64,000 bases of DNA from Phycisphaerae bacterium (lineage in GTDB: Bacteria > Planctomycetota > Phycisphaerae > UBA1845 > CAIVHJ01): positions 64,141-128,140 of the forward strand of contig JAJVHX010000017.1 in the NCBI GenBank assembly GCA_022072405.1, read 5' to 3'. This document shows positions 22,150 through 42,069 of this stretch, in pieces. Position numbers and translations under genes: made by a program. Within the stretch, counting starts at the first letter, position 1. Every line of letters starts with the position of its first letter. The notes beneath the pieces were generated by a model. That model made no database searches, was not told where the DNA came from, and saw only the letters and a program-made list of their open reading frames with translations.

Positions 22150-23430
22150 TTACAAATTGAAGGTCATCATGAGTGATCCCACCAACGCGTCCCGACCATC
22201 TCCGCCGGGGTCGATTACGTATTGCACAACAGGCTGTACACTGAGATGGGGGGTCAGCTGACACTTATAAAAACACTCCAACGCCATTTCGTCAAAACGC
22301 TGCTCCAGGCGTTGGATTTCTTCACTGATCTGGCCGTGAAATATTCCCATCCCGAACACGTCTTCATCGCGCGTTGGAAGTAATCCGGTATATTGCCAGC
22401 CCCCGACATAACTCTGGGAAATCTCGTTGTATGCCGACGGGGCCCAGCCATACATGAAAAAGAGACCTAACCCTTCTATACTGTCAGCCTGATCGGGGTT
22501 TTCCCGTGTAATTTGTTGATCCAGGCTGAGATACCACCCAGAATTCCCTTCGTGGAAGCGCGGGCGACGCCGGCCTTGCAGATCATTAAAATAAATCTCC
22601 CAGTCACCACTGTGATACCAGCCGCCGATTCGATAAAGTCCCGGCAGGGTCGTTTCAGCAATGGACCACTCGGGCATCAATCCCAGCTCGACCAGTGTGA
22701 ATGAATCATTGTTGCCATGAAATGCGGTGTGAAAAGGGCTATGGTCACCGATGCCTTCGCCATCATATATTCCGCCCGACAAATACAACCAGGGCAGGGG
22801 TTCAATATAGAGTTCGGAGCCGAAAGCACAATCCGGATAGGTGGGTTGCGGCATATTGGGAATGGCTACCGCCACGCTATGCAGAAAATCAGCCCCATTA
22901 AGGGTATTGGCCAGATGGGCATTACTATCGAGTTTACCGATACGAAAGGTGACATGATCAGACCAGAGCGTTTGCTGCCACCAGAATTGCGACAGTTGCG
23001 TGCGATCCGGGCTGTCATATTCATTGATGCCCAGCAGATCGCCGACGTGTTCATCCGTCAGGCTGCGCCCATGAATATTCTGAAACTCAAAATAAAATTG
23101 ACCGCCCGGCCAGAGTCGCAGTTCTTCAGTATTCAGAGTCAACCCCAGATTGAAGGCCCCGCGATAGGCTTCTGCTTCGTTGACATTTTGCCCACCTTGA
23201 AAGTTCTGTGATCAGATGGCCACATAGCCGGCATCGATGATCACTCCCTCCGGCAATAGGAGCGCTTGATATGATTCTTCCTCCGGTGCGGGTGGTAACG
23301 CCGGCTGGGTAGTCGGGGAATTTGACACTGTGCTGATTTTATCCGACGGCGAGTCGGGAGATTCTGCATCCTGTAGCGGTTCGGTCATGGGTAACAGATT
23401 GACAAACAACAATAAAATTATCTTGGTCAT
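22150..23430 (-). pseudogene. OprB-family carbohydrate-selective porin interrupted by one in-frame TGA
   Basis: ORFs 23212..23430 (signal peptide MTKIILLLFVNLL...) and 22150..23142 are in the same frame. They are separated only by the TGA at 23212-23214 (...DAGYVAI*SQNFQGGQNVNEAEAYRGAFNLGLTLNTEELRLWPGGQFYFEF...). OprB-like motifs include LWPGGQF, LSQFWWQQTL and RIGKLDSNAHL. C-terminal MMTFNL. Confidence 0.7.
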
Positions 23431-26182: not shown

Positions 26183-26596
26183 GTGGAAGATTCAGAAGAC
26201 ATCCAACGACTGTTCAGCCACATTTTAGGCAAGTCGGATCTGCAGGTGGATAGCGCCGTTAATGGTTTGCAGGCCCTGGTTCGGATCAAACAAGCCCAGG
26301 ACGATTCAATTCCATACGCTGTGATATTGATGGATATGCAAATGCCGTTGATGGATGGCTATACAGCGGTTCATCATTTGCGCTCCTGCGGCTATCAAGG
26401 CGCCATCATTGCACTTACTGTACATGCCTTGGATGAAGAAAAAAAACGTTGCTTACAGGTGGGTTGCGATGCTTACATTACCAAACCAATTGTCCGCTCA
26501 GCGCTGTTAGAAGTGGTCTACCATAACGCCGGCAAGACAAAATCCGACCCGCTGGACAGCCACTGTCTTGAACAACTGATCGCCAATCCTGGTTAA
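26183..26596 (+). CDS. response-regulator receiver (REC) domain without a credible start codon; probably the detached C-terminus of the hybrid kinase
   Basis: (LLLV)EDSEDIQRL..., phospho-acceptor ILMDMQMPLMDG, ALTVHA, YITKP. The reading frame is open only from 26132 (after the TGA at 26129). It has no ATG/GTG/TTG before the GTG at 26183, which lies inside beta-strand 1. Confidence 0.7.
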   Translation: MEDSEDIQRLFSHILGKSDLQVDSAVNGLQALVRIKQAQDDSIPYAVILMDMQMPLMDGYTAVHHLRSCGYQGAIIALTVHALDEEKKRCLQVGCDAYITKPIVRSALLEVVYHNAGKTKSDPLDSHCLEQLIANPG

Positions 26597-26665: not shown

Positions 26666-26747
26666 TGCGCGAGGGGAGAATCGAACTCCCACACCTTGCG
26701 GTACAGGAACCTAAATCCTGCGCGTCTGCCAATTCCGCCACTCGCGC
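26666..26747 (-). tRNA. tRNA-Leu (anticodon UAG)
   Basis: The reverse complement folds as a class II tRNA. Acceptor GCGCGAG/CTCGCGC, 3-bp D stem with GG loop, anticodon stem CAGGA/TCCTG with loop TT-TAG-GT, long variable arm, T arm GGGAG-TTCGATT-CTCCC, discriminator A. CCA is not encoded. Confidence 0.9.
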
Positions 26748-27311
26748 TAATTCAATCTCAGGCAGAATAATCATAATCATTGAAGATACCAAATTACATT
26801 AATTATTGCTCAACCAATGGCTTGTGACGGCTATGCCATCAGCCATGAAATTATTCCTCACTTTGCAAGAAGTTTTCCTGCACAGTAATATACCGATCTC
26901 GATTTAAGTTGACCCGGTCAATTTTTTTCTGAAAAATCGGGAAAATTCTATGATTATCGGTCGTCTATTGTTAAACTTAAGATTATGATTGACATCGCTT
27001 TCGGGCTTGAGTATCACTATCTATGAGGAGGGTGGTCTTCCTGCAAATCAGCTGACAGGTCTTGCTGGTCACTTGGGCAGCACCACAATTTATCGGGCAG
27101 GATCAATTTCATCACCGGAAAGCACTTGGTGAGCGTGGTCGTCCAAATTAGCTGAGACCTGTAGCGGGAGCTTGGGGAAGCTCTCACCATAAACAGTACT
27201 GGACTCGTTGCGCGGTCGTATGGCGGCCAACGGGGCAGTTGCTGTTATTTTCATGGTTAACAGTAAATCAAGGTCGTCCACGTGCAAATGCTCCACTGGA
27301 GGAGAAGGTTC

Positions 27312-30300
27312 ATGAGCACCCGTCAAATGTCCACCACATGTCAAGCGGCCTGGCGGGCCGCCCAAGTCCTGGTTTTCAGTTTGCCTCTCTGGCTGGCGGT
27401 CGCCGAAAGCCAAGCTGAAACCCGCAAGTTCAACGTATTTCTGGCCAATCCGCGGGCCCAATGGATTCCACAAGACCAGCCGATGGGTAGTGATATGTCC
27501 TCCGATGCTGGTGGGCAGCCGGCGGATGGTACGATGATGCCCAACCCGGGTGACATCGACAAATGGTACTTCGACTACACCCGGAACGGCGTTCCGCCGC
27601 AAGCGCGGATCGACTCTTTCAAGGAGTGGTGGTTTGAAGTTTCTTATGGCAACGTGATCATTGAAGGTTCGGATATTAACGTTCATACCTTCGGCTGGTT
27701 CGATCTGCCCTGGCCTGTCTCTCCCAAGAATCATCTGGAATTATCTGCTGAAGATCACATCGATCTCGATAATGCCGGTCCTTACACCTATGGCCGAGGT
27801 GAGCGGTTCACCGATGGAACCGTTATGTTTTACACAGATTTCAGTGGACAGGATTTGCCTCTCGATGGCACGACTCAGCCATCCATTCACGCCTTGGAAG
27901 ACGGCGCCTTCACGCCCGGTGAGCGCTTCATGGACCTGGATGGTGATAATCGTTACGACTCCTTGTTTGAACCCTACAGCACCCAGGATATCAACGAGAA
28001 TTGCATCTGTAATTATGCCGGTAATGATCTGGATGCCTTGAAGTATGGCGGTGATTTCACCTTGATGGATCTGGCAGGGAATCCTGTTCCTGGTAGTGGC
28101 AATCTGGAGGATTGCATCGAACAGACCAATGAATTGTTGACTGCCGAATGTCCAGAAACGGAAGCTGGCCAGATGGCCTGTGAAGATGCCGGTTGTACCT
28201 GGGATCCCGGTACGCTTCCGAACTGCCCCTCTCACGGGGATCAGACATCCTGTCAGGGTGACGAAGGCTGTGAGTGGATTCCTGCCTGTACCGGTGCCCC
28301 GCAATGTCCAGCCAAATTGACGCAAACACAGTGCGAATTAGATACGGAATGCACCTGGGATCCACCGGCGGAATGCGTTCTCGACCCTGGCTTTGTGGCG
28401 GATGATGCCGAGTGTATCGCGCAGGAATGTCCCGAAGGCGGCGGCACCTGTCTGGTGCAGGGATGCGACATAGAAGATTATTTTGAATCCGGCAATGACG
28501 ATGAGCGCAACCTTCCTGAACCATTTGAGGATTATCTGATTTTCCGGGATCGGGCGGGCGATATCACCAACGGTGGTTCTCCTCCATCGGACAATCCGTA
28601 TCAGCCAGTGCCCGCTGATTATATACAAGCCAACTATCCGGGTGATTGGGAAACGCTGCAGACGCTGGCTGATAACAATGTTTATGATTCTCCGGAAGCC
28701 TGGGAACCGTATACGGAAGATGGCGGTTATGTACGCGGGACGGGAGATTTTGCAAATCCGACCAATGATCAGGGTAACCTGGAACGTAATCTGGAGTTGA
28801 CCGAGTTCCAGGGAGATATCGCGGCCACTCCCCAGCCCAGCTGGTATGAAGATTTCTGGAAATCAACTTTTGTTCCGGAAGGTCCGGCTGATGTGCCACC
28901 GGCATGGCCCGATGAAGGCCTCATTCGCGATCTGCAATATTTCCCGGCTGAGGATGTTGCCGGATATACTTATCCGTTCGAGATCAACTATCAATCGAAC
29001 AAAGGCGGTCGGAAGGGATATGGAACAGCCGGTGACCAGGAAGCGATTGGTCAGCCGGTTGGTTTCTCACCCGATACATTCTGTGGTGTTGCGGACAGCC
29101 CCTGGCAGCCGCTGGCGGAGGATGGCTGCGGTGATGGCACCTGGGTCAACCCGGAAGATCCCACTGATCCCGGTTCACCGATTTATCCCACACCACAACA
29201 GAATTACAACGGACCGAAGGAATATTATGATTCGCCTTCATCCATCTATCATGCACGATACATTCCACTGACCAACGAAGATGGCTGTCCGATCGATCTG
29301 GAAGGCGAAGAAATCTGTGATGATTGTATTGATTGTGATGCGGGAGATATCGCTCAATTCATACCCATCATGCTGGACTACGGTGGAGATACGACATTTG
29401 GCGAAACCACCTCTTCGGATCCATACTTCCAATCGAATCGAACTAACCGAGGTGCAGATCGCGGGACTTCACCATTTACCACTTCGCTGGAGATTCTGTT
29501 CCCGGATGGTTACATCGTTCCGGCGGGTCCTCTGGCCGGCGGCGATGTTTTCTTCCCGACATTTGAAGAAGGTAATCCCGGCCCGTATGGTAAAGCCATT
29601 CCGGTTCACGGTTGCAAGCTGGCGGATGGCGGAAACGTCATGACCCTGGAATTAATGACCTGGGTCCGCAAACTTGAAGATCCCCGCGCCTTGCCCTTTA
29701 GTCAGGATACGGGCAATGTTGTGGGCCAGAGTGCCGGATCGATGGGCATGGGATTTGATTTCCGAACCGGTGAGGATGCCATCGGTTTCGCCGATTTCGA
29801 TATGGATGGCTTACTTGATCTCGGTGAAGGTGTGACTTTCGGTTATCGCGATACTGATGATGACGGGACGCTGGATTCCTATTACGGCGTCGAATCCTAT
29901 GCAGTAGATGGCCGTATCGGCACCGGCGGTATGAATAACGGTACGTTTACGGATTACCCCTATAATCGCGATCGCATGATCGAAGATATCATTGGGTATA
30001 TTGATTCGATCCACAACATGGCTGGATTGATCGACTCCTGGGGTGTCAGCGGCATTACGCTGCTACCGGGCAGTATGGGTGGTGAAACCGGTAGTGACGG
30101 TACCTTCTCTCACGAAGTTGATAACAGTGTTTTTTCGGTTCCAGCGGCAGGTTTCAATGCCATGCCGGTGAATGATGTGATGGTTCAGGCCGGACCGTAT
30201 GATGGTACGGTGCCTTGTCCGGATGGGGCTGATTGTACGTTGGTGCCTACGCCGTGGCGGCTGATGCAGGCTTATGTCTCCGCCAACAGCATGGCCATCG

Positions 30301-33300
30301 CTTTGGATCGAGGCCATCCGATGGATGTGCAGCAGGCGACAGAAGGTAAGTTCAAAATTACCTTTGCGGCCCACGAATATGGCCACATCTGGGAGGGATG
30401 GGTCGACTTCTATGATTACGATACTCTGCCCGACGTGCCGTCTGTGGAAGAAGCACCGGTGGGCGGGTTTGATATCATGGCGGGTGACCGGGCCATCGGT
30501 CTCCTGCCGAAGGTTCATACTGCTGCATGGCACAAACAGTGGTCCGGCTGGATCGATCCGGTTGATCTGACCACCGTGCTGACTCCGGGCATATCCAAGG
30601 AAATCACTATTATCGGCAGTGAAGCCCCCAATCCCGGTGCGGGTCAGGGCTCACCATTCTCACCGCAATCGTACTACTTCTTCCCCAATCAGTATGTGGG
30701 CGGCGGCCAGCTGGTGAATGTTGAACGATTTGATTTCTGGCACATCAGCGATACACGTGACAATATCGGATCGGAACCCAAATTCGGAAACGAATATCCC
30801 TGGGGTGACGAAGAGATTGATTACGGTCTCGGCTCCGAACCAGATGGTATCATAACACTGAATCGTCGGGCTGATGAATGTGACAGCGGTGAAGATCCGT
30901 CTGGCGACGAACCGGATGGCGGCGTATTGATCATGCATCTGGATGTGGAAGCTGATTCACTGGGTATTCCTGCACAACAGATTGATCCCAGCCATGTCAA
31001 TTATCTGATACTGCAGGCGGACGGGGATGATGATCTGATGGCCAATTTCGCTATTGGCAACGGCGGGGACAATGGTGATTACTACCCCGGAACCTGTAAC
31101 AATACCCTCTGGACTCCGTTGTCCTACCCGCACACACGCTGGTGGGCACCGGAAGCGGGCGTCAGTGGCATTGAAATCCATAATTCCGAAAACCTGGGTG
31201 TGAACCCGAATACCGGTTTCGGTTCCTCGCGGGTGGAATTCTTCTGGCAACCGCGCGACACCGCTTCGCTGACCTGGCTGAATGTGGATTCCACAGTCAG
31301 CAGCGGTTCGATGTTCCCATTGAATTACCGTGCTTATGATGTCGCCGGATTTACCCGCATCCATATGTTCAAGGATACGGACAGCACCGGCTTCAACGGT
31401 GTAGCCATACCTTCATGTCCGCCTTCGCCTTTGTCTGATACCACGCCTTTCCTCAAGAAGGCGCCGACCGGACCGGGACCGAAGGATGTCCAGGGTATTT
31501 TTGATGTCGATCTGAACTGTTTCGATGATGGTCCGGCTTACTTCTACGCATTCCTCGAACCAACCGGTTCGGAGCCGAAGGTCAGTCCGGTACGTCCGTT
31601 CATTAATAATGTGGGTAACGGAAATGTAACCATCAATCCGGCAGATGTTCGTCTGGATCCAGCCAATGTGAATTCGGTCAAGGTGGAGAGCTGGACGCTG
31701 ACAGTAGTGGATGATGCGATACCCGGTGCTGAAAAATGGAGCGTGGTCGGAACCCGATCCGGTCTGCAGGCGACTCAAGCGACCACGAACGTACTTTATA
31801 CGTCGGCAAACCCGGCTGGGGCGATCAAGCTGACGATACATCGCGGCTCGATTGACTTCAAGGATGGGGATTACTTTACCTTTACGACGCCTGGCTGGAC
31901 TCCTTATTCGTCCATGATCCAGGTGGAAGATCATGCGGTCGGCCCTCATCCGTTGGCCGACTTCGAAGCACTGGATCCGACGGTTGGACCGCGTCCGTTG
32001 CAGGTTCAATTTGACGGCACGTTATCCACCGATCCCAGCGCCGGCTTGTGTGTGGGTGATCCGCTGGATTACGACTGGGATTTCGGCGATGGCGGCAGTT
32101 CGACGCAGGCCATGCCGACTCATACGTTTGATGAATCCGGTACCTACGACATCACCCTGGTTGTCACCAACTGCCTCGGGCAGACGGGGACGAAAGTGCG
32201 TGAAGGTTATGTCGTGGTGCTCAGCAATCCACCGACGGTGATTCTGTCCACGACACCGAACCCGGCGCAGGGTGCTTTACCGTTGTCGGTGCAGTTTGGT
32301 GTTCAAGCCAGCGACCCAGATGGCGATGCCATCAGCAAGTATGAATTTGATTGGCAGATGCCGGGTACGATGGATGATTTCGACATAGATGATTTTGCGG
32401 CTGATTTCACGATGAATACGAGCCAAGGCGCGGTCAACACCACGCATATTTATTCGACGGTGTATAACGGACTGGCGGCGGTTCGCGTTACCGATGTATC
32501 CGGTGACAGTCGTACGGTGGTGGTCGAAATCAACGCCGGCAACCTGCCGCCCAATGCGATCTTCAGTGCCGGCAGTCGGACTATTAATGGAAATGACCCG
32601 CTGCCGTTGATCGGAACTGTTCCGTTCACACTGAATTTCAACGGTGCCGTTTCTACAGACCCGGATCTTGATGCGCTGACCTACGCGTGGTTCTTCAGTG
32701 CGGCGGCTTTGCAATCGGGCATTCCCGATGCCACCGGTCCGCAGGCCACCCATACGTTCAGTGCAGTTGGTACATTCCTGGTGACATTGGTGGTCACTGA
32801 TCCGGATGGAGCATCCGATTCTGCCTCTGTTCAGGTTCAAACCACATTGGGCGAACCGAACGTGATTACCGTGTCGATTGTTGCTTCCAAGTCATCCGGA
32901 GCTTCACCGCTTGCGGTGAACTTCACCGCCAATGCCACCTCATCCAACGGTTCGCCGCTGGATTACACCTGGAGCTTTGGCGATGGTTCCGCGGATGCTT
33001 TCGGCAAGACGGTATCTCACACCTTCACGAATGCCGGCTCGCAGCAGATTGTGCGAACGGTCTCCGTGCTGGTGCAGGACGATGCCGGAACGCAGAAAAC
33101 CGCTACCAAGCAGATTACTGTCTATCCACCTGGTGGCTCGGGTGACGACGACGGTCCGTTTGATCCTAATCTGATCGCTGAGTTTTTCATTGAAGAGGGC
33201 AGCGCTTCCGGCAATGCTCCGCTGGCGATCACCTTTAATACCACCGGTTCAGAGGCATTGGATGGTACGCCGGTTACCTGTCGAATCGAGTTCGGAGACG

Positions 33301-33884
33301 GGTCGATGCCGGTAAACGTTCTGCCGGGTACACTTGTACCTCATACTTATCATTCGGTGGGTACCTTTACGGCCTATTCATTCACGGTAGGCCAGGGTGG
33401 TTCGGAAACCCGTTCAGACGGTATTGCGATTACGGTGAACGATTCCGGCACGCCGATCGCGGCGATTGATGCAAATGTTCTGGAAGGTGAGGCTCCGCTG
33501 ACCATCTCGTTCGACGCTTCCGGCTCCGTTGATCCGGAAGGTCAGGCGCTGACCTTCAGTTGGGAATTCGGCAATGGAGCACAGGGTACCGGGACCACCG
33601 TCAATTACACATACCAGTCAGCGGGTACTTATGTGGTAACCTTGTCGGCTGATGATGGGGGTGCGGTGGGAACGGCGACCGTGACGATTGAAGTTTCCAG
33701 CCCACTAACCCCACCGGGAGGAGGTGGTGGTCTGGGTAACGATAACACCGTCACGCAGCCGAATCCGGATGACGCCAACGGAGCATGCGGTGCGGGTTGC
33801 GGTCCGATGGGTGCCGGACAGCTGTTGGCGACACTGATCGGGTTGCTCGGTGTACGGATGAATTTCCGTCGCCGCCGTCTCTAA
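27312..33884 (+). CDS. giant secreted M6 (immune-inhibitor-A-like) metalloprotease with Cys-rich module, Ca-binding-like loops, six PKD repeats and a C-terminal sorting signal
   Basis: The ATG at 27312 has GGAGGA upstream. Signal peptide ...VLVFSLPLWLAVAESQA. M6-like N-region FKEWWFEVSYGNVIIEGSDINVHTFGWFDLPW. Zinc site HEYGH at 30372-30386. PKD repeats at about 31960-33695. Tail ...GACGAGCGPMGAGQLLATLIGLLGVRMNFRRRRL. Confidence 0.85.
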   Translation: MSTRQMSTTCQAAWRAAQVLVFSLPLWLAVAESQAETRKFNVFLANPRAQWIPQDQPMGSDMSSDAGGQPADGTMMPNPGDIDKWYFDYTRNGVPPQARIDSFKEWWFEVSYGNVIIEGSDINVHTFGWFDLPWPVSPKNHLELSAEDHIDLDNAGPYTYGRGERFTDGTVMFYTDFSGQDLPLDGTTQPSIHALEDGAFTPGERFMDLDGDNRYDSLFEPYSTQDINENCICNYAGNDLDALKYGGDFTLMDLAGNPVPGSGNLEDCIEQTNELLTAECPETEAGQMACEDAGCTWDPGTLPNCPSHGDQTSCQGDEGCEWIPACTGAPQCPAKLTQTQCELDTECTWDPPAECVLDPGFVADDAECIAQECPEGGGTCLVQGCDIEDYFESGNDDERNLPEPFEDYLIFRDRAGDITNGGSPPSDNPYQPVPADYIQANYPGDWETLQTLADNNVYDSPEAWEPYTEDGGYVRGTGDFANPTNDQGNLERNLELTEFQGDIAATPQPSWYEDFWKSTFVPEGPADVPPAWPDEGLIRDLQYFPAEDVAGYTYPFEINYQSNKGGRKGYGTAGDQEAIGQPVGFSPDTFCGVADSPWQPLAEDGCGDGTWVNPEDPTDPGSPIYPTPQQNYNGPKEYYDSPSSIYHARYIPLTNEDGCPIDLEGEEICDDCIDCDAGDIAQFIPIMLDYGGDTTFGETTSSDPYFQSNRTNRGADRGTSPFTTSLEILFPDGYIVPAGPLAGGDVFFPTFEEGNPGPYGKAIPVHGCKLADGGNVMTLELMTWVRKLEDPRALPFSQDTGNVVGQSAGSMGMGFDFRTGEDAIGFADFDMDGLLDLGEGVTFGYRDTDDDGTLDSYYGVESYAVDGRIGTGGMNNGTFTDYPYNRDRMIEDIIGYIDSIHNMAGLIDSWGVSGITLLPGSMGGETGSDGTFSHEVDNSVFSVPAAGFNAMPVNDVMVQAGPYDGTVPCPDGADCTLVPTPWRLMQAYVSANSMAIALDRGHPMDVQQATEGKFKITFAAHEYGHIWEGWVDFYDYDTLPDVPSVEEAPVGGFDIMAGDRAIGLLPKVHTAAWHKQWSGWIDPVDLTTVLTPGISKEITIIGSEAPNPGAGQGSPFSPQSYYFFPNQYVGGGQLVNVERFDFWHISDTRDNIGSEPKFGNEYPWGDEEIDYGLGSEPDGIITLNRRADECDSGEDPSGDEPDGGVLIMHLDVEADSLGIPAQQIDPSHVNYLILQADGDDDLMANFAIGNGGDNGDYYPGTCNNTLWTPLSYPHTRWWAPEAGVSGIEIHNSENLGVNPNTGFGSSRVEFFWQPRDTASLTWLNVDSTVSSGSMFPLNYRAYDVAGFTRIHMFKDTDSTGFNGVAIPSCPPSPLSDTTPFLKKAPTGPGPKDVQGIFDVDLNCFDDGPAYFYAFLEPTGSEPKVSPVRPFINNVGNGNVTINPADVRLDPANVNSVKVESWTLTVVDDAIPGAEKWSVVGTRSGLQATQATTNVLYTSANPAGAIKLTIHRGSIDFKDGDYFTFTTPGWTPYSSMIQVEDHAVGPHPLADFEALDPTVGPRPLQVQFDGTLSTDPSAGLCVGDPLDYDWDFGDGGSSTQAMPTHTFDESGTYDITLVVTNCLGQTGTKVREGYVVVLSNPPTVILSTTPNPAQGALPLSVQFGVQASDPDGDAISKYEFDWQMPGTMDDFDIDDFAADFTMNTSQGAVNTTHIYSTVYNGLAAVRVTDVSGDSRTVVVEINAGNLPPNAIFSAGSRTINGNDPLPLIGTVPFTLNFNGAVSTDPDLDALTYAWFFSAAALQSGIPDATGPQATHTFSAVGTFLVTLVVTDPDGASDSASVQVQTTLGEPNVITVSIVASKSSGASPLAVNFTANATSSNGSPLDYTWSFGDGSADAFGKTVSHTFTNAGSQQIVRTVSVLVQDDAGTQKTATKQITVYPPGGSGDDDGPFDPNLIAEFFIEEGSASGNAPLAITFNTTGSEALDGTPVTCRIEFGDGSMPVNVLPGTLVPHTYHSVGTFTAYSFTVGQGGSETRSDGIAITVNDSGTPIAAIDANVLEGEAPLTISFDASGSVDPEGQALTFSWEFGNGAQGTGTTVNYTYQSAGTYVVTLSADDGGAVGTATVTIEVSSPLTPPGGGGGLGNDNTVTQPNPDDANGACGAGCGPMGAGQLLATLIGLLGVRMNFRRRRL

Positions 33885-33912
33885 ATAGTTGTTGTTTGCT
33901 TACATAACCATG

Positions 33913-33945
33913 CCCGTGGATGGGATTCCATCCACGGGTTTTTTT
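33913..33945 (+). terminator. intrinsic terminator
   Basis: Perfect 11-bp stem CCCGTGGATGG (33913-33923) / CCATCCACGGG (33928-33938), loop GATT, T7 (33939-33945). Confidence 0.85.
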
Positions 33946-34025: not shown

Positions 34026-35084
34026 CTAGTTGCCTTCACCGTTATGGGTCGATTCATCGGCTGATGTGTTTGATCCCCACAATTTCCAGTCATTCGGAAT
34101 ATCGGTCACTACCGGGATCGCGGGGAGGAGGCGTAGTAAAGAGCAGGAAACGTCCTGATCCTGAAGTTCTGCAGCGGCCTGTTCGGACATTTCCTGCTGC
34201 AGCTCCTGGGTAACCGGCTGAGTAGTGGCGGGCCAGTGCTGCAGAATCTGCCATCGCCACCAGATCAACGTACAGCGCGCCTGCTGACCTTGAGCTTCGG
34301 AAGAATAAGCTTGAGCAGTGGATTCTTCGAGCTTGAGCAGTAAGGCAACAGCTAAATCCGGTTGTTGCCGGCGGGCGAGAATCCGGCATCGTTCACCGGC
34401 CAGGTACAGACTGATCGGTTGTTCAGATGAGAGGCGCATTGCTTCGGGCAGAGTAGCCAAGGCCCGATCCCAGCGTTCATTGGCTGCATAGATCAGGCTT
34501 TGCCAGAATAAGGCGTAATCGGAAATTTCGGCGCGATCATCATCAAGCCAAACGGCGAGTGTATTGGCCAGTGAATCCAATCGTGCGGCGTCACGTTGGC
34601 CATCCTGCGCCTGGCTCCAAGCCTCCAAAACGTCAGTCATCAGTCGCAGGAATTGAGCTTGGTCCTTATTCAGGTCATCCTCTGAGGCGGATTTATCAAG
34701 CAGAGTGCGCGTCTGCAGCAGCAGTTTCTGCAGTTCATTAAGTTCTGCTTTGGTATTGATCTGCTGCAGAATGCTGCTGATCATTGGTTCAGCCCGGACA
34801 CTCAGATTCCAGTTGGCCAAGGCCAGTACTTGACTCGGATCAGGAGTTGAGGAGGATTGAAGCAGCAGTTCTACGCGCCGATACTCCTCATCCAGATAGG
34901 CCTGGTATTGTTCTTCTGAGGTAAAAGTCGGTGGATAATTGGATGTACTTAATAGCGGGTGCGGTACAGCAGGCCGGCTGGTCACAGCTTGAGTGGCAGG
35001 TTCAGTTGGCTGAGATTCCGTGGCTGGTTGCTGGAGCAGGACTGAAAATAACATACCGGCCAATAAAATGACGGACATGTTCAA
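34026..35084 (-). CDS. hypothetical secreted helical protein
   Basis: 352 aa. Signal peptide MNMSVILLAGMLFSVLLQQ, then a Pro/Thr-rich linker and alpha-helix-like sequence. Divergent from the vWA/ExbBD cluster. No recognised motif. Confidence 0.6.
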   Translation of the reverse strand: MNMSVILLAGMLFSVLLQQPATESQPTEPATQAVTSRPAVPHPLLSTSNYPPTFTSEEQYQAYLDEEYRRVELLLQSSSTPDPSQVLALANWNLSVRAEPMISSILQQINTKAELNELQKLLLQTRTLLDKSASEDDLNKDQAQFLRLMTDVLEAWSQAQDGQRDAARLDSLANTLAVWLDDDRAEISDYALFWQSLIYAANERWDRALATLPEAMRLSSEQPISLYLAGERCRILARRQQPDLAVALLLKLEESTAQAYSSEAQGQQARCTLIWWRWQILQHWPATTQPVTQELQQEMSEQAAAELQDQDVSCSLLRLLPAIPVVTDIPNDWKLWGSNTSADESTHNGEGN

Positions 35085-35331
35085 CTCCTTTTCTAGAATT
35101 CGCCAAGAGTACGAACTGACTGAAGCGATTGCAACGCGTATACTATGGGTGATGCCGTCTCTTCCGGGGTGACTCTGTCGGTTTACTGGCTCTGACGGTT
35201 TGACCTAAACAGTTATCTAGCCTACACTAATGTTAAATTAAGACCGACTGGAACGAGACAACAGGAGTTCGTACCTCGAACTGATTTTTCAGAGAATCAG
35301 GACTGCTGCTCCGGCTTCACAGGACGACCAG

Positions 35332-36357
35332 ATGAGTCAGCTGCCCAAACCATCCCAGATTAAAGCTGATGGCCAACCGGCGTCGCCTGGAGCAACACCA
35401 CCGGTTCACGCCGGATTAGCAGCGAAAAAAGAGGAATCGATTTTCCAGGATCCCGGTGAGCTGCTGAACAAGATGTTACCCTGGGGTATATCTCTGCTAA
35501 CCCATGTGTTTCTTTTTCTATTGATGTTTCTCGTGGTCTGGGTGGTGCAGGTAACCGGTATGGATAAGCCCCTGCCGATTCCCACCGCCGGAGTCGAGGA
35601 TCTGTTCGATGAAAACATGATGGGGGGTTCGGAAAATCCGGATCTGAAGGTTACCCAGAACAACGTTCCGGTCAGTGCCCAGAGCGTTTCCAATCAACAG
35701 CTCGATTTATTGCGCGAAGTGGGCATGAGCGGCGAAGGGGATCTTTCCATCATCGGAATCGGTGCCGGCTCAACCGGCGGCGACTTTGCTGATTTCGGCG
35801 CCGGCAGCGGACAGGGTGATGGACCTTCATTTTTCGGACTAGGCCGCGGCGCCACCAACATCAAAAAGGTTGCTTATGTTGTTGATCGTTCCGGTTCGAT
35901 GACGGACGTGATTGATGGTTTGAAAGAAGAAATCAAACGCTCCATAGATCGGCTACATCGGGTGCAGCAGTTTATGGTGCTCTTCTTCAGCAACGGTCCG
36001 CCCATTGAAGTGCCCCCCGGTCAGTTCGTATTAGCCCATAAGCAGTACAAGGATCGGGCCTTCGAGTTCATCGACAAAATCGAGCCAGGCGGCAGCACTG
36101 ATCCGATCCAGGCGATGAGCAGGGCGTTTTATGCCAAACCGGATCTTATCTATTTCCTGACCGACGGTGAATTTTCTCCTGAACTGATCGAGAAGCTGCA
36201 CGTTTGGAATAAAGATAAAAAGGTGCGCATCTACACGATATTTTTCAAAACCAGCAATATGGGTTATCTGGGCAGTGATCCGGAAGCCCTGTTACGGCAG
36301 ATCGCCCGCGAGAATAGTGGAGACTTTCGCAGTGTTTCGGAAGAAGATTTATATTAA
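35332..36357 (+). CDS. membrane-anchored vWA-domain protein with TonB-like N-terminal anchor signature
   Basis: Single TM segment LPWGISLLTHVFLFLLMFLVVWVV (Ser54-x3-His58). Gly/Ser/Asp linker. vWA with MIDAS DxSxS (VAYVVDRSGSMTD) and downstream GGSTD. Confidence 0.8.
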   Translation: MSQLPKPSQIKADGQPASPGATPPVHAGLAAKKEESIFQDPGELLNKMLPWGISLLTHVFLFLLMFLVVWVVQVTGMDKPLPIPTAGVEDLFDENMMGGSENPDLKVTQNNVPVSAQSVSNQQLDLLREVGMSGEGDLSIIGIGAGSTGGDFADFGAGSGQGDGPSFFGLGRGATNIKKVAYVVDRSGSMTDVIDGLKEEIKRSIDRLHRVQQFMVLFFSNGPPIEVPPGQFVLAHKQYKDRAFEFIDKIEPGGSTDPIQAMSRAFYAKPDLIYFLTDGEFSPELIEKLHVWNKDKKVRIYTIFFKTSNMGYLGSDPEALLRQIARENSGDFRSVSEEDLY

Positions 36358-36361
36358 GCCG

Positions 36362-37393
36362 TTGATACGGGCATTGAGTTTGGCGGTACTGGCCGGCGGC
36401 TGGGGCGTTGCATCAGTGCAGGCCGATGATATTCGCTCCAGCGAGGGAGAATTCCGTCGCGCCACGATCCGCGGATTTGATGGCGAATTTGTCATTTATA
36501 ACAACGCCGCCGGCGAAGCCCAGGCAGCGAGAATTACCGATATACAGCAGCTCATAGTCGACAGCACGGATGGTCTGGATAATTTTAATCGCGGTGAAAA
36601 ACACTTTTTTGACAAGAAATATTCCGAGGCGGCTACACAATACAAACAATCACTGGGGCGCGCCCGTGGGTTCTGGAAAAATCTGTGCTGGGCGCGCTAT
36701 CTGCAGGCCAGCGAGCGGGCGGGGCAACTGGATCAGGCGGTGGAAGCCTTCCTTTTTCTGCTCAACGCGCTGCCGGAAAAAGCATCGGCACTGATTCCGG
36801 TAAATATTACAGGGGCCACTCCGGAAGTCCGTCAGAAGGCGTTGAATCTGCTGGCTGAGGAACTGGCCAAAGCCGCAAACAGTAACGTCTACTGGGAACT
36901 GGAAACGCTGCGATTGACGATTCTGGAGGAAGTGGACAGCAAGGAGGCCGGACGCATCGCTAATGAGATCTTCGAGAAGGCTCGGCGCGACGGGCAGGTG
37001 ACAACTCAATATCGCCCCATGATCCTGGTCGTCCAGGTGGAGATGAAGCACCAGCAATATGCCTCCGCCCGTGATCACATTAATGAATTGATTCCGGCGG
37101 TGGAGGATCGATATTTGCCGGAATTGCTTTTTCAAAAGGGACAGTGTGTCTTCGCGCTAGCCAAAGATCGGAATGATTATTATCAGGCCGGTCTGGTATT
37201 TATGCGCGTCACCATTCATTTTCCCAAGAGTCGCTTTGCAGCTCCCAGTCTGTACTGGACGGGACAGGTGCATGAAAAAATTGAACGGCCTGCGAAAGCG
37301 GTGGAACTATACCAGGCGTGCCTGGAGATCGCCGGAGCAGACGAATCCATCAAAAAACAAGCCCAGGAGGCTTTGAGTCGACTGCGGCCATAG
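36362..37393 (+). CDS. secreted helical/TPR-like repeat protein
   Basis: The ORF is open from 36275 but overlaps the vWA gene. The TTG at 36362 lies 5 nt after the vWA stop and gives a signal peptide LIRALSLAVLAGGWGVASVQA. TPR-like helical pairs follow (YSEAATQYKQSLGRARG..., YQAGLVFMRV...). The start is uncertain. Confidence 0.6.
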   Translation: MIRALSLAVLAGGWGVASVQADDIRSSEGEFRRATIRGFDGEFVIYNNAAGEAQAARITDIQQLIVDSTDGLDNFNRGEKHFFDKKYSEAATQYKQSLGRARGFWKNLCWARYLQASERAGQLDQAVEAFLFLLNALPEKASALIPVNITGATPEVRQKALNLLAEELAKAANSNVYWELETLRLTILEEVDSKEAGRIANEIFEKARRDGQVTTQYRPMILVVQVEMKHQQYASARDHINELIPAVEDRYLPELLFQKGQCVFALAKDRNDYYQAGLVFMRVTIHFPKSRFAAPSLYWTGQVHEKIERPAKAVELYQACLEIAGADESIKKQAQEALSRLRP

Positions 37394-37430
37394 AACAGAT
37401 ATCAGCGGCTCGGAACGGCCCTGAGCCGCC

Positions 37431-38303
37431 ATGGGAGGATGCATGTTCGCAACAATATCACGACGAAGGCGTTTATTCTTGTGCAGCTTGCTGCTGGGCT
37501 GGGCTGGTTGTTTTGTGCTGCCCGCGATGGCTCAGAACAATCCACCGGCCAATCCGCTCCAGAAAAAAGAACTTAAAACCAGCGCTTTTGATCAATATGT
37601 GACCGGCGGCGGCTGGATCACCTATTTCGTGCTGATACCGCTTTCATTCCTGATGACCGGACTGAGTATTGAGCATTTTCTCAATATTCGGCGGGGCACG
37701 CTGATGCCGGATGAACTGAAGGCTTCGCTGGTGCAGTTGATACAGGAGCGGCGGTACAAAGAAGTGGTCGAGACGACTGCGCAGCATCCCAGTATGCTGG
37801 CTGGGGTTATTCACGCGGGTTTAACGCAAGCCAACTCCGGACTGGCTGCCATGGAACGGGCCATGGAAGAAGTGCTGGAACTCCGTGCTGCGGTATTGTT
37901 TCGTCATATAGAGTATCTGAATGTCATCGCCAATGTCAGCCCGATGATTGGACTGTTCGGAACCGTGGTCGGCATGATTCAGGTCTTCAGCACGATTAAA
38001 CAAATGGGTGGCCAGCCGGATGCGGTTGAACTGGCGGGGGGTATCGCTGTTGCTCTGATTACGACGTTTTGGGGTTTGCTGATCGCCATTCCAGCGTTGT
38101 CGATCTTCCACATCATGCGCAATCGAATTGATGCGCTGCTGGCGGAATGTGCCGAAGAGGCCGAGCAATTGCTGCAGGTCTTCCGGCCGATGGGTCGCGG
38201 AGGATTGACTCCCGTCAAGGAAACACCCAAAAAGCCGGCGGCTGCCGAACCGAGCGGACTGGTCGGCCAGAGCGGAACACCTTCCGCCAATTCGCCTGCA
38301 TGA
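37431..38303 (+). CDS. exbB: MotA/TolQ/ExbB-family proton channel
   Basis: N-terminal signal-like segment, then the ExbB core: IEYLNVIANVSPMIGLFGTVVGMIQVF, GGIAVALITTFWGLLIAIPALSIFHIMRNRID. Confidence 0.85.
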   Translation: MGGCMFATISRRRRLFLCSLLLGWAGCFVLPAMAQNNPPANPLQKKELKTSAFDQYVTGGGWITYFVLIPLSFLMTGLSIEHFLNIRRGTLMPDELKASLVQLIQERRYKEVVETTAQHPSMLAGVIHAGLTQANSGLAAMERAMEEVLELRAAVLFRHIEYLNVIANVSPMIGLFGTVVGMIQVFSTIKQMGGQPDAVELAGGIAVALITTFWGLLIAIPALSIFHIMRNRIDALLAECAEEAEQLLQVFRPMGRGGLTPVKETPKKPAAAEPSGLVGQSGTPSANSPA

Positions 38304-38336
38304 TGTTTACTCCTGAATCAGGAGCTGCGCTGAATA

Positions 38337-38798
38337 ATGGCATTGAAAGCACCCAGCCAATCGTCTAATAAAGGCTCTCTGCAGGTCAATCTGACCCCGA
38401 TGATTGATTGTGTATTTTTATTGATCATTTTTTTTGTAACCGTCAGTCGTTATATTTCGGCGGAGAATATCAACATTGTTCTCCCCAATCCGCAATATAG
38501 CCTGGCCCAGCCGATCGAACTGCCGGATCGTACCGTATTGAACTGCCAGTTCATCCCCGACTCAGAAGATGGAAATACCGGTACTGTGCATTATCAGCTG
38601 GGTGCGACCATCATTACTGATCTGGATGATTTACAGGCTCGTCTGCAGCAAATCCGGCAGGATCGACCGGATGTGCAGATTGTGGTGCGTGCCGATCGTC
38701 GCCTGGAATATCAATATATTCGCGATGCCATGATGTGCATTGCCAAAGCCAATATCAAGAATATGAATATTGCAGCGGAGCTGGCGGAACGACAATGA
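38337..38798 (+). CDS. exbD: ExbD/TolR-family protein 1
   Basis: VNLTPMIDCVFLLIIFFV (TM with conserved Asp), then a periplasmic domain ...VVRADRRLEYQYIRDAM. Confidence 0.85.
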   Translation: MALKAPSQSSNKGSLQVNLTPMIDCVFLLIIFFVTVSRYISAENINIVLPNPQYSLAQPIELPDRTVLNCQFIPDSEDGNTGTVHYQLGATIITDLDDLQARLQQIRQDRPDVQIVVRADRRLEYQYIRDAMMCIAKANIKNMNIAAELAERQ

Positions 38799-39319
38799 CA
38801 CCTACCGGCCAACACCATCCTGATGAAACCGTTCACTACGAAGCCCCGCGCAAAAAGCGTGCCAAGGAAGAAGCTTCGATGTCGGTCAACCTGACGCCAG
38901 CGATCGATATCACCTTCAATCTGCTGATTTTTTTCGTGGTCGGCACTACGTTCGCCAAAGTTGAGGGATTATTGCCTTCTGCCTTGCCCAGCGTAGAAGG
39001 GGTAGTGCAGGCTACTCCGCTGCCGGTCAGCCCGATTAAAATTCGATTGAAGCAGGTGGGTGACGGGCCGGGCGATTACCAGTTACGCATCGATCAATGG
39101 CGACAACCGCCGGAAAGTTTTGAAGAACTGACCGTCATCCTGGAGGATTTTCTGAACAAACCCGGTTTTAACCGGGACACACCGGTGATCATCTACGCCG
39201 AGAAAAAAGTGCGTTGGAACCATGTGGTCAACTGTTTCAATGCCATTCGCCGGGTGCGCTGGAGTCTGCCGGGAGAAGAAGGATTCAAGAACATCTCTTT
39301 TGCCATAGGTACCTTGTAG
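38795..39319 (+). CDS. exbD: ExbD/TolR-family protein 2
   Basis: The ATG at 38795 overlaps the upstream TGA (ATGA). VNLTPAIDITFNLLIFFVVG has the conserved Asp. ...VIIYAEKKVRWNHVVNCFNA. Confidence 0.8.
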   Translation: MTPTGQHHPDETVHYEAPRKKRAKEEASMSVNLTPAIDITFNLLIFFVVGTTFAKVEGLLPSALPSVEGVVQATPLPVSPIKIRLKQVGDGPGDYQLRIDQWRQPPESFEELTVILEDFLNKPGFNRDTPVIIYAEKKVRWNHVVNCFNAIRRVRWSLPGEEGFKNISFAIGTL

Positions 39320-39330
39320 GATCGTGCATA

Positions 39331-42069
39331 GTGGGAATGTTGATGGTTATTGGTTGTAGTCTGGTGCTGGCGGCAGGCGAACCGGAAAATGATCGCCTGC
39401 CCAATGACACCTTTCGCCGCGGGTTGAAGCAGTATGGGCTGAATGATCTACTGGATTATTATGTTCAGCAGTTTCCGCCCGGGGATCCGATCGAAGCGGC
39501 GCTCCTGGCCCGTGAGCTGAAGTTGAATATTTACGCGGATCCGTCGGTTCCGGCTGCCGAACGAATGACCGCCGCCCGCGAAGCCCATGCGCTCCTGCAG
39601 CAATTGCTCCAGGCCAACCCCGATCATCCTCAACGCTATACCTGGCAGTTGGATCTGGCCCGTGATTTGATCGATCGTCAGGCCGAACCCTTTTATAACA
39701 ATATTCTCTATCGTGGAGGCAGCAGTGCCGACCGCGAGCAGTTACGACAGTTGACCACGGCGGCGCTGGCGATTTACGACCGACTGATCGCCGAACTGAC
39801 CAGGGCGGTCGCGGGTATTGATGACTTGTCGATTCAGGAATTTGAACGACTGGCCAAGATTGGCTACATCGAACAAGTCGAAAATCTATTGCCCAAAACG
39901 CGCTACTTCCATTGCTGGGCCCGCTATTACCATGCCCTGACCCTGTCTGCAGACGATCCGGAACGAGCCAATATTCTGCAGCAGGTGCTCCTCTACCTGC
40001 AGGATGAGTCCAAGCTGACCACGATCGAACATGAAACCTCGCACTATCAGGCCCAGTCATTGCTGCTGGCGGGCATGACTTCTCGACTGCTGAATAACGT
40101 TGATCAGACGGAACAATATCTGTCGCAGGCGGCCAATATCGTCAGCAATCTTCCCGATTTTGCCGAACGCTATAATCTCCGCTGGGTTCAGGTGCTGGCG
40201 GGTCTGGAGCGAATTAAGAACTTTCGGGATAACGGCCGTTATGATCAAGCCCTGCAACTGGTCACCCGTCAGCGGGAAGAGTTGCCCAAGGACACGGCGA
40301 GTGGCTTTGCCGTGCGCTTCGCCCTGGCTTTATTGGAAGGAACCGTTTACTCAGCCCAGGCGGCTGCTCTGCCCGACAGTGATACTCAGCAACGACAGCA
40401 GTTATTGTTGCAGTCACGTGCTCCTCTGATTGCTCTGGCTCGTGCCTTTCCGAAATATCAGGATCAGATTTACGATACACTCTATGACTTGCTGGGAAAT
40501 ATTACCGACCCATCCAGACTCGATTCTTTTGAAAAGAATATTTATATTTCCGGTCTGCTGCGTCAGGCCCATGACCTGCAGAATCAAATTAATACTGCCG
40601 GTGAGGCCTCGGCGGTTAAGGACAAATTGAATACCTCCAAGCGCGATCTGATCACCAGGGCCCGCCGGACGGCCGAACTCCTGTTGAACGAAGATACTCC
40701 CTTGGCCCGTGAAATTCGCCCGGAGGTACGGTTTAATCTGGCCGTTTGCCATTATGAGCTGGATGAAACGATTGCAGCGATTACTGATTTTGCCCGTGTC
40801 GCCAATGAACACCCGGATTTTGAGCGCAGCGAAATGGCGGCTCAATATGCCGTTCGGCTGGCTGAATCCATTTATTTGCCCAGTCAGGATCCGTTGCGCA
40901 ACCAGTTGCGTCCCCATTATCTGTTGGCGCTACAAACGCTGCTGGAACGATTCCCCACAACGGATATTGCTCAACAACATCGTTTTGCCTTCGCCCGGGC
41001 CTTACAGGAAGCCGGCAATTTTACGGAAGCCGCACAGCAATACAGTCGCGTCAACCCGGACGATCCGCAGTACGTAGAAAGTCTGTATCGTATTCCGGAG
41101 TGTGATCTGGAAGTACTACGTCAGAAAGTTACTCAAGGAGTTGGTGCGGAGATCATCAACCAGGCCCGGTTGACGCTGGATGGCGCACAACGCTTCCGCG
41201 ACAAATTGACCACGATCAAATTGCCTGCTGGTTCGACGTTAAAAGAGGAATCGCTGCTGATCAGCGCGGAAGCGTACTTGCTCAAAACCCCGGCAGAACC
41301 CGCGCAAACAATAACCATGCTGGACCAGATGAATACCGACAGCCAGGAACATCTGGCGCTTCTGGGCCGTTCGTTGCGTTTGCAAATTCTGGCTTTGCAG
41401 GCGTTGGGACAGTCAGAGGAAGCCGCCCGCATCATTCCTGAGTATGTGCAACGCGACCCACAGTCTGCCGGGGCGACTTTATCCAGCCTGCTCGAAACGC
41501 TGAAGAAAGAACACCAGCAATCTCTCGCGAAGGCTGATACGGAACTATCTCGGACCAAGGCAGCGGACGCTTTGCTTGTCGCCCGACAACTTGCTGAATG
41601 GGCCAATCAACCAACAGTCTCTTTGGAGGAGAGCGCCCGGGTTGCCTTTCGGCTCGAGCTGGCCGAGGCTTTGCTACGAACCACCAGTTCAACCGATGCA
41701 CAAGAAGCCCTTAATCTGTTACAGTCGATAGTCAGCGTTGAAGAAAAAAACCAACCCGATGGCCGATGTCGGAATGGCCGGGCTTTGATGGGACTGGCTG
41801 ATGCTCATTTTGCCTTGCAGCAGTATGAACCGGCCTTGAAGTTATACAGTCGTATATTTCAGGAATCGGTGGAAAACACCGATTTATGGTGGCGGGCGTT
41901 TCTGCGCGACATTGAATGCCGGTTGCATCTGAAATCGCCGCCGGATACTCTTTATAGTCTATTGAAACAGAAGGAATATCTTTATCCGGAATTGGGGGGG
42001 GCAGCGATTGCCGGTGAATTTCATCGTCTGGAGCAACTTCTGCAACCGACTCCCACATCCAAGCCATGA
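39331..42069 (+). CDS. large (about 910 aa) TPR/helical-repeat protein, probable lipoprotein
   Basis: The start at GTG 39331 or ATG 39337 lies just after the ExbD stop at 39319. N-terminus MLMVIGCSLVLAAG has a lipobox-like VIGC. All-helical repeat sequence throughout. The stop overlaps the miaB ATG. Confidence 0.7.
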   Translation: MGMLMVIGCSLVLAAGEPENDRLPNDTFRRGLKQYGLNDLLDYYVQQFPPGDPIEAALLARELKLNIYADPSVPAAERMTAAREAHALLQQLLQANPDHPQRYTWQLDLARDLIDRQAEPFYNNILYRGGSSADREQLRQLTTAALAIYDRLIAELTRAVAGIDDLSIQEFERLAKIGYIEQVENLLPKTRYFHCWARYYHALTLSADDPERANILQQVLLYLQDESKLTTIEHETSHYQAQSLLLAGMTSRLLNNVDQTEQYLSQAANIVSNLPDFAERYNLRWVQVLAGLERIKNFRDNGRYDQALQLVTRQREELPKDTASGFAVRFALALLEGTVYSAQAAALPDSDTQQRQQLLLQSRAPLIALARAFPKYQDQIYDTLYDLLGNITDPSRLDSFEKNIYISGLLRQAHDLQNQINTAGEASAVKDKLNTSKRDLITRARRTAELLLNEDTPLAREIRPEVRFNLAVCHYELDETIAAITDFARVANEHPDFERSEMAAQYAVRLAESIYLPSQDPLRNQLRPHYLLALQTLLERFPTTDIAQQHRFAFARALQEAGNFTEAAQQYSRVNPDDPQYVESLYRIPECDLEVLRQKVTQGVGAEIINQARLTLDGAQRFRDKLTTIKLPAGSTLKEESLLISAEAYLLKTPAEPAQTITMLDQMNTDSQEHLALLGRSLRLQILALQALGQSEEAARIIPEYVQRDPQSAGATLSSLLETLKKEHQQSLAKADTELSRTKAADALLVARQLAEWANQPTVSLEESARVAFRLELAEALLRTTSSTDAQEALNLLQSIVSVEEKNQPDGRCRNGRALMGLADAHFALQQYEPALKLYSRIFQESVENTDLWWRAFLRDIECRLHLKSPPDTLYSLLKQKEYLYPELGGAAIAGEFHRLEQLLQPTPTSKP

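Follow-up and report, generated by a model that had tools for sequence, protein, structure and literature searches.

A conserved Phycisphaerae gene block predicted to encode a proton-driven envelope machine with a von Willebrand factor A transducer

Introduction

TonB and TolA have long been the only known carriers of proton energy from inner membrane to outer envelope in Gram-negative bacteria, and a third type of transducer, one whose adhesion domain is metal-dependent, would add to this repertoire. Whether planctomycetes encode such a transducer is the question raised by a cluster of six genes at positions 35332-42069 of a 64,000-nucleotide stretch of DNA from a Phycisphaerae bacterium (GenBank assembly GCA_022072405.1, contig JAJVHX010000017.1, positions 64,141 to 128,140; the whole 64-kb stretch is referred to here as the window). 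The cluster joins genes for an ExbB/ExbD-type motor to genes for a protein with the vWA (von Willebrand factor A) domain and two tetratricopeptide repeat (TPR) proteins. A first-pass annotation, made from the sequence, had described it as a novel, TonB-less machine driven by the proton motive force, with a vWA domain as its output module. In our analysis a proton-driven motor with a vWA output instead of TonB is the best-supported reading, on the strength of a W-x2-S-x3-H helix motif, conserved synteny, retained motor residues, an invariant metal ion-dependent adhesion site (MIDAS) and published structural models (PMC12204202). The claim of novelty did not survive, as the class was published in 2025 in the same paper. 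We consider it probable that the locus encodes a TonB/Tol-type proton-driven envelope machine with the vWA protein as its force-transducing arm, its role being most likely housekeeping of the Tol-Pal kind.

Layout of the locus

Gene content was read directly from the open reading frames (ORFs) of the window. Six tightly spaced ORFs on the plus strand occupy 35332-42069 in the order vWA, small TPR, ExbB/TolQ-like, ExbD1, ExbD2 and large TPR, just as the first-pass annotation had it when it described six nearly gapless genes on one strand. A divergently transcribed gene directly upstream is a frequent seventh member. The features are as follows.

34026-35084, minus strand: divergent helical protein of 352 amino acids, apparently secreted (signal-like N-terminus), without a Pfam family; frequent seventh member
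35085-35331, no strand: divergent intergenic region of 247 nt; promoters in both directions are presumed from its position
35332-36357, plus strand: putative vWA force transducer of 341 amino acids, predicted to be anchored in the inner membrane (AlphaFold2, Foldseek, homolog conservation)
36362-37393, plus strand: small beta and TPR protein, apparently secreted (Pfam TPR_2, signal peptide, AlphaFold2)
37431-38303, plus strand: ExbB/TolQ-like channel subunit with a signal-like N-terminal extension (Pfam MotA_ExbB)
38337-38798, plus strand: ExbD/TolR-like protein 1 (ExbD1), 153 amino acids (Pfam ExbD)
38795-39319, plus strand: ExbD/TolR-like protein 2 (ExbD2), 174 amino acids, a highly diverged paralogue (Pfam ExbD)
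39331-42069, plus strand: large TPR/helical-repeat protein, apparently secreted, of about 908-912 amino acids with an ambiguous start (Pfam TPR_19, TPR_6, TPR_14)

A gap of 4 nt separates the stop of the vWA gene at 36357 from the TTG start of the small TPR gene at 36362, and the genes for the ExbB-like protein and ExbD1 start after gaps of 37 and 33 nt, respectively. Both annotated ATGA overlaps are present: the ExbD1 and ExbD2 genes share one at 38795-38798, and at 42066-42069 the stop of the large TPR gene overlaps the start of miaB, which is followed by clpS. The distance from ExbD2 to the large TPR gene is 11-23 nt, depending on the choice among three candidate starts (GTG at 39331, ATG at 39337 and ATG at 39343); the last was picked by the gene caller on the identical public contig. 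Profile searches returned the matches that the annotation had led us to expect, namely MotA_ExbB, ExbD twice, VWA (marginally) and TPR, and no TonB_C.

The vWA protein carries a TonB/TolA-like membrane helix

The vWA assignment is marginal in Pfam terms (VWA_2, 27.5 bits against a cut-off of 27; VWA, 23.5 bits against 23.8), yet AlphaFold2 and Foldseek confirm the fold. The protein consists of a cytoplasmic N-terminus, a membrane helix (residues 41-75, nucleotides 35452-35556), a linker (residues 76-175) and the vWA domain (residues 176-341). In the AlphaFold2 model the helix has block-mean predicted local distance difference test (pLDDT) values of 85-96 up to about residue 70, the linker lies mostly below 50, and the domain mostly above 90. 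Foldseek matched residues 176-341 to the vWA domains of ITIH1, Cav alpha2delta, CMG2/ANTXR2 and Bacteroides BatB at E-values of 1e-11 to 1e-9. A homology search recovered 233 relatives, the named ones being from Planctomycetota or Phycisphaerae. Across 29 aligned sequences that share 33-56% identity, the MIDAS residues D185, S187, S189, T256 and D278 are invariant, which together with the fold bears out the annotation of a MIDAS-bearing vWA protein; the helix residues S54 and H58 are invariant as well.

TonB and TolA bind their motors through the SHLS motif in their membrane helix, and this motif has recently been restated as the motor-binding element of both proteins (PMC12204202). Among 79 vWA homologs derived from the loci described below, W51, S54 and H58 of the helix are each present in all 79, and position 65 is Met in 73 and Leu in 4, while adjacent positions vary freely. 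The spacing S54-x3-H58-x6-[LM]65 equals that between positions one to three in the SHLS motif; Ser and His are present in the helix, and Asp is absent. The resemblance of this helix to a TonB/TolA-type motor-docking helix is well supported by the sequence comparison. A helix-helix partner is likely because invariant Ser and His residues in an otherwise variable helix are hard to explain without one, and from this we infer coupling of the vWA helix to the motor.

The linker is Gly-rich rather than Pro-rich, with 6 Pro in residues 76-175, of which P121 is kept in 90% of vWA homologs. The vWA domain is closely preceded by two strongly conserved motifs, LSIIGIG (138-144) and GPxFFGLG (164-171). 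Nearer the helix, 6-15 residues past it, is a moderately conserved island, LPVxxTELVG, presumably where TonB and TolA carry their motor box strand.

The ExbB/ExbD motor

The channel protein matches Pfam MotA_ExbB at 9e-29. Its best NCBIfam model is tolQ, at 74.5 bits far under the cut-off of 221, and searches against the Protein Data Bank place it equally distant from TolQ (1e-10) and ExbB (4e-10); therefore we name it tolQ/exbB-like. Residues T178 and T212 are invariant in 69 of 69 homologs and align with the two transmembrane Thr residues of E. coli TolQ, which we take to be T145 and T178. V207 (nucleotides 38049-38051) replaces the Glu of the third transmembrane helix (TM3) of TolQ and ExbB, a position that we take to be E173 and E176 in the respective E. 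coli proteins; it is Ile or Val in 67 of the 69 homologs.

ExbD1 and ExbD2 match Pfam ExbD at 3e-19 and 1e-12. The membrane Asp is kept in both, as annotated (LTPMIDCVF in ExbD1, LTPAIDITF in ExbD2): D24 of ExbD1 and D38 of ExbD2 are each found in 69 of 69 homologs and align with the transmembrane Asp of E. coli ExbD, presumably D25. Similarity between the two proteins is confined to the membrane segment (38% identity over 39 amino acids), a pattern that fits an obligate heterodimer. Judged by its retention of the key Thr and Asp residues, the motor looks functional. We also considered a Zorya defence motor (ZorAB with ZorC/D or ZorE) and rejected it: PADLOC produced no more than a generic MotA/ExbB match to ZorA, at 14.6 bits, and the remaining six proteins had no match.

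Conservation of the block

A scan for relatives of the vWA protein, with one genome per species, yielded 394 stretches, and synteny was examined in the best 80 of these 394 by comparing six-frame ORFs with the window proteins and then with family profiles. Titles name Phycisphaerae, Planctomycetota or Planctomycetales for 77 of the 80 loci. All six genes are colinear on one strand in 63 of the 66 loci with at least 4.5 kb of downstream sequence. The block is thus conserved outside the source genome, and far beyond chance expectation. Of the 72 loci whose upstream DNA is long enough, 53 have a homolog of the divergent gene next to the vWA gene on its upstream side and on the opposite strand. 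The small TPR gene is the closest companion of the vWA gene and adjoins it in all 80 loci, including three that lack nearby motor genes. Complete genomes with the block include CP070718.1, CP070744.1, CP070691.1, OY776568.1 and that of Phycisphaera mikurensis. In the genome collection each Phycisphaerae-type locus has one transducer gene, with no extra copies.

Clustering of flanking genes across the 80 loci found no other universally conserved neighbor. Of the four closest relatives, three (L001, L002 and L004) have miaB adjoining the block, while L003 ends short of the position, and the same three have the gene for a 2200-residue PKD-repeat protein upstream, which is not found in L003 or in more distant loci. 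Separately, an isochorismatase-like gene (about 200 amino acids, identified by reading the sequence) follows the large TPR gene directly on the same strand in 27 loci, at a median distance of 63 nt (for example L056, 18031-18651); its position is held by miaB and clpS in the window.

The family extends well beyond these loci. When a profile of the window's family was run against 1.84 billion representative proteins, 1961 matched at E <= 1e-30. Among the 144 best new representatives, 84 have a hydrophobic segment with S-x3-H, which almost always reads [PAST]-W-x2-S-x3-H, and in an alignment of 26 members of more distant subfamilies P-W-x2-S-x3-H and the MIDAS residues are invariant. In metagenome loci of other subfamilies, recovered by a scan seeded with such proteins, ExbB and ExbD genes again come after the vWA gene, and some of the loci have TPR genes too. 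Two of these loci (L084, 6079-14939; L085, 1187-10358) carry two tandem vWA transducers, both with P-W-x2-S-x3-H, followed by small TPR, ExbB, two ExbD and large TPR genes, and one more distant relative (P0120) has a single ExbD gene alongside. Many distant members (P0187, P0203, P0249 and others) have an N-terminal cytoplasmic CxxC...CPxC zinc-ribbon, a domain that the window protein does not have; one source labels a zinc-ribbon-bearing vWA relative "phage FluMu protein Com".

The TPR proteins and the divergent upstream protein

The small TPR protein matches Pfam TPR_2 and has a signal peptide ending at VQA/DD (the slash marks the cleavage point), with A-x-A/D also present in homologs. Its AlphaFold2 model, built on five sequences only, has a mean pLDDT of 87.6 and comprises five strands at residues 18-65 followed by 15 helices that form about seven TPR repeats; the homology search for this protein gave only 5 matches, with repeat words saturating the candidate list. 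The best Foldseek matches are peptide-binding TPR superhelices (LGN/Pins and designed CTPR). Assignment to CpoB/YbgF was rejected, as TIGR02795 scored 30.9 bits against a cut-off of 90.1 and Foldseek gave generic TPR matches only.

The large TPR protein matches Pfam TPR_19, TPR_6 and TPR_14. Just past its predicted cleavage site, the mature N-terminus reads [AP]-E-x2-R-[LF]-x4-F (residues 17-28, nucleotides 39379-39414), with E19, R22 and F28 each present in 66 of 67 homologs. The divergent protein encoded at 34026-35084 has no family match in Pfam, NCBIfam or PADLOC. The first-pass annotation had spoken of TPR-like lipoproteins and proposed a lipobox, MLMVIGC, in the large protein. This part of it has to be given up: the homolog N-termini of the large protein that were inspected, about 60, have no Cys at the position of the window Cys, which itself is preceded by just 5-8 residues, and resemble common Sec signals ending in A-x-A or A-x-G, as judged by eye and not by a signal-peptide predictor; no conserved lipobox is seen in either TPR protein. 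The two TPR proteins and the divergently encoded one all resemble soluble proteins secreted through Sec.

Genomic neighborhood

We compared 47 further ORFs of the window with Pfam, including the leftover ORFs of 112-214 amino acids, which extends coverage down to about 110 amino acids. These 47 contain no TonB_C, Plug/TonB-dependent receptor, TolB, Pal or OmpA domain, in agreement with the first-pass annotation, and the vWA protein itself has no TonB_C. TolA domain III, TolB and Pal were found neither in the window nor in the gene clusters that recur beside the block in the 80 loci, where representatives were read without a Pfam scan. The neighbors have housekeeping functions and include genes for prolyl-tRNA synthetase, the P protein of glycine cleavage, MscS, threonine synthase, enolase, DXP synthase, NAD kinase, RNase Y and DsbD, with MiaB (Pfam match 7e-128) directly downstream of the block. 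The only porin in the window, of the OprB family (22150-23142, minus strand), lies 12 kb from the block.

Scans for regulatory signals do not inform the operon limits, as neither promoter nor terminator counts rise above shuffled controls. Four weak sigma-70-like matches on the plus strand fall within 35085-35331, and their count over the scanned region is likewise not above the controls. The sole strong hairpin (33912-33939) is upstream of the block, 3' of the PKD-repeat gene, and Rfam and tRNA scans found nothing inside the block.

Some further features of the window were noted in passing. The PKD-repeat protein (27282-33884, plus strand; 2200 residues with at least 5 PKD repeats) is encoded directly upstream of the module and is followed by the hairpin just mentioned, a strong 12-bp terminator. 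A tRNA-Leu gene (26666-26747, minus strand) is the only RNA gene detected in the window by ARAGORN and Rfam. A CHASE4-HisKA ORF (23876-25390, plus strand) overlaps an HATPase_c ORF in another frame (25342-25803), which suggests a frameshifted or split histidine kinase gene at 23876-25803; a response-regulator receiver ORF (26183-26596) comes after it. At the 5' end of the window, an ORF that runs off the edge (1-3444, plus strand) codes for a coiled coil, rich in Gln, Glu and Arg, of at least 1110 residues without a Pfam family, and it accounts for the strong AT skew (0.34) in the first 2 kb.

Proposed mechanism and role

The computational analysis shows which genes the locus holds, how their domains fold, which residues are conserved and how far the synteny extends; on this basis we infer contact between the vWA helix and the motor, transmission of force, a ligand for the vWA head and a physiological role. 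In the machine that we favor, a pentamer of the ExbB/TolQ-like protein would enclose a heterodimer of ExbD1 and ExbD2, each with its proton-binding Asp, to form a 5:2 motor in the inner membrane. The vWA protein would dock on the outside of this motor by the W-x2-S-x3-H face of its helix, as TonB and TolA do by SHLS, and proton flow would move the motor so that it pulls on the vWA protein. The disordered Gly-rich linker of about 100 residues would let the vWA head span the periplasm to a ligand in the periplasm or outer envelope, where the invariant MIDAS metal site could grip an acidic residue of a partner. Probable partners or scaffolds are three co-conserved and apparently secreted helical-repeat proteins: the small beta and TPR protein, the TPR protein of 900 residues and the one encoded divergently upstream. 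Conservation points to two candidate contacts: the linker motifs LSIIGIG and GPxFFGLG may lie in TPR grooves, and the MIDAS may have its ligand in the near-invariant E-x2-R-[LF] at the N-terminus of the large TPR protein.

The role of such a machine is most likely a housekeeping envelope function like that of Tol-Pal, in tethering or remodelling of the outer membrane. We lean toward a Tol-like role because the transducer is single-copy per locus, the block recurs across the sampled Phycisphaerae, its neighbors are housekeeping genes, no receptor genes are nearby and the phylum is reported to lack Pal. The module may explain how planctomycetes energise envelope processes, given that surveys have found no Pal and mostly no TonB in them: the supplement of PMC12204202 reports no pal in Planctomycetes, and TonB, along with TonB-dependent receptors, was present in only 4 of the planctomycete genomes surveyed by Speth et al. 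in 2012 (PMC3422733). A bolder proposal is that the seven-gene module is the main proton-powered link between inner membrane and outer envelope in planctomycetes, doing the work of Tol-Pal through the grip of the MIDAS on E-x2-R-[LF] while the small TPR protein clamps the linker motifs; if this held, force would be transduced by a metal-dependent, reversible "catch" and not by the beta-strand pairing of TonB and TolA. We regard this proposal as a whole as speculative and improbable. To our knowledge, planctomycetes divide without FtsZ.

Several points weigh against the machine that we favor. The vWA helix matches three of the four SHLS positions, the last Ser being Pro or Val in the family, and the AlphaFold2 model of the vWA monomer has no beta-strand "motor box" in the linker. 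The chemistry of the motor may differ from that of its relatives owing to the replacement of the TM3 Glu by Val or Ile. Three Phycisphaerae loci (L029, L054 and L063) have the vWA and small TPR genes only, with no ExbB, ExbD or large TPR gene in the flanking DNA examined; their motor may be encoded elsewhere or be absent. The block encodes no outer-membrane component to be pulled, and its accessory proteins all look soluble. The absence of TonB covers the 64-kb window alone, and a canonical TonB could be encoded elsewhere in the genome, so that the annotation "TonB-less" stands for the window and not as a claim about the whole genome, which is beyond the window's reach. The published work on the class (PMC12204202) gives its function as unknown, states that no deletion phenotypes are on record and raises gliding as a possibility. 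Finally, the argument for a Tol-like role is one of genomic context and a lack of alternatives only.

Alternative explanations

The same machine might have an import job, in which the vWA head replaces TonB, in lineages without TonB-dependent receptors, and energises the uptake of large substrates through an outer-membrane channel encoded elsewhere. The topology is TonB-like, the motor is nearer to ExbB/TolQ than to MotA, and a MIDAS site could stand in for TonB-box strand pairing as the grip; in addition, most of the planctomycetes surveyed lack TonB and its receptors (PMC3422733), and uptake of polysaccharides and macromolecules has been reported for planctomycetes. However, neither the block nor its conserved neighbors encode an outer-membrane barrel or receptor, the sole porin of the window is the distant OprB, and the single transducer gene per Phycisphaerae-type locus stands in a housekeeping context without sign of nutrient regulation. 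We consider an import job unlikely.

Still less likely is a motor that serves a canonical TonB or TolA encoded elsewhere, with the vWA and TPR proteins forming a separate Bat-like complex that merely shares the operon. The three loci with vWA and TPR genes and no motor genes nearby are in line with such a separation, as are the presence of Bacteroides BatB among the Foldseek matches and the possibility of a distant tonB beyond the window. Against this, the invariant Ser and His of the vWA helix match the spacing in TonB and TolA, the vWA gene and the motor occur together in 63 of 66 loci, in other subfamilies ExbB comes straight after the vWA gene without an intervening TPR gene, and the ORFs scanned contain no MoxR or DUF58 genes.

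The least probable reading is a job in surface adhesion or gliding, with the motor moving a vWA adhesive element by analogy with Myxococcus Agl-Glt and CglB: one channel gene and two different TolR-like genes are the textbook AglR-AglQ-AglS layout, a vWA domain serves as the adhesin of that system and the possibility has been raised in print (PMC12204202), but CglB is an outer-membrane lipoprotein whereas a TonB-like helix is predicted to anchor the window vWA protein in the inner membrane, the block and its conserved flanks encode no Glt-like partners, and the accessory proteins look periplasmic.

Comparison with known systems

The favored machine shares with TonB-ExbB-ExbD a predicted 5:2 motor with conserved Thr and Asp residues, a single-pass transducer with its N-terminus inside and an S-x3-H-x6-[LM] helix, and a flexible linker long enough to span the periplasm. 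It differs in having no TonB_C domain, a linker that is not proline-rich, two different ExbD proteins where the TonB system has a homodimer, Val or Ile in place of the TM3 Glu of ExbB, and no TonB-dependent receptor in the window. With Tol-Pal it has in common a channel protein that scores best against TolQ models, a TPR gene beside the transducer gene, like CpoB in tol-pal operons, and a housekeeping context. In contrast to Tol-Pal, the window locus is without TolA domain III, TolB, Pal or CpoB, and its small TPR protein combines a beta domain with a seven-repeat superhelix.

Coupling in the Myxococcus Agl-Glt system runs through the TonB-like proteins GltG and GltJ. The AglRQS/Glt machinery resembles the window locus in its one TolQ-like and two different TolR-like subunits and in a vWA domain at the working end; it differs in that this domain belongs to an outer-membrane lipoprotein, CglB, while the window protein is a putative inner-membrane transducer with a TonB-like helix, and the block contains no Glt genes. 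Bat operons (BatA-E) encode vWA and TPR proteins alongside the AAA+ ATPase MoxR and a DUF58 protein. We rejected a Bat identity, as no AAA+/MoxR or DUF58 protein is encoded in the ORFs scanned and BatB is just a generic vWA structural match.

The closest counterpart is the class of vWA force transducers with tolQR-like motors that was predicted from sequence in 2025 (PMC12204202). Its members are vWA proteins tethered to the inner membrane, with an SHLS-type helix, a disordered motor-box linker, a domain II of about 100 residues and a C-terminal vWA domain; they occur in Proteobacteria, Planctomycetes, Verrucomicrobia, Bacteroidetes and Rhodothermaeota, and in AlphaFold 3 models the helix His occupies the TonB/TolA site of the motor. 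The same paper describes a second vWA family, which also has a membrane-tethered vWA domain encoded next to a TolQ-like gene but which uses an Asp-bearing, TolR-like trans-pore helix with tolQ only, whereas the window locus has a Ser/His helix and two tolR-like genes. The transcriptome of Rhodopirellula (PMC2754498) places exbBD and a 327-aa vWA gene at unlinked loci and is uninformative here.

We file the window locus in the published class, itself purely predicted, because it has the membrane helix with Ser and His, the C-terminal vWA fold and the neighboring motor genes of that class and does not have the defining features of TonB, Tol-Pal, Bat or Zorya systems; the seed organism of the class, Tichowtungia aerotolerans, was compared by its description only. 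Further likenesses are the disordered linker of about 100 residues, the neighboring TPR gene, the combination of one tolQ-like gene with a dissimilar pair of tolR-like genes, and a place in the Planctomycetes-Verrucomicrobia-Chlamydiae (PVC) group of phyla. Among the differences, the vWA gene comes first here, while in the paper it is often downstream of the TPR and motor genes; Tichowtungia has two transducers, as do L084 and L085, against one in the window locus; the window linker is Gly-rich with two strongly conserved motifs; and the text of the paper does not mention the 900-residue TPR protein or the divergent secreted protein. The locus is thus a well-conserved Phycisphaerae-type variant, with the vWA gene first, a single transducer, and an added 900-residue TPR protein and divergent, apparently secreted protein. 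It does not establish a new class; what it adds to the predicted one is a defined, conserved form, with seven genes, a fixed order, invariant residues and candidate contacts, that makes the hypothesis of a vWA force transducer testable.

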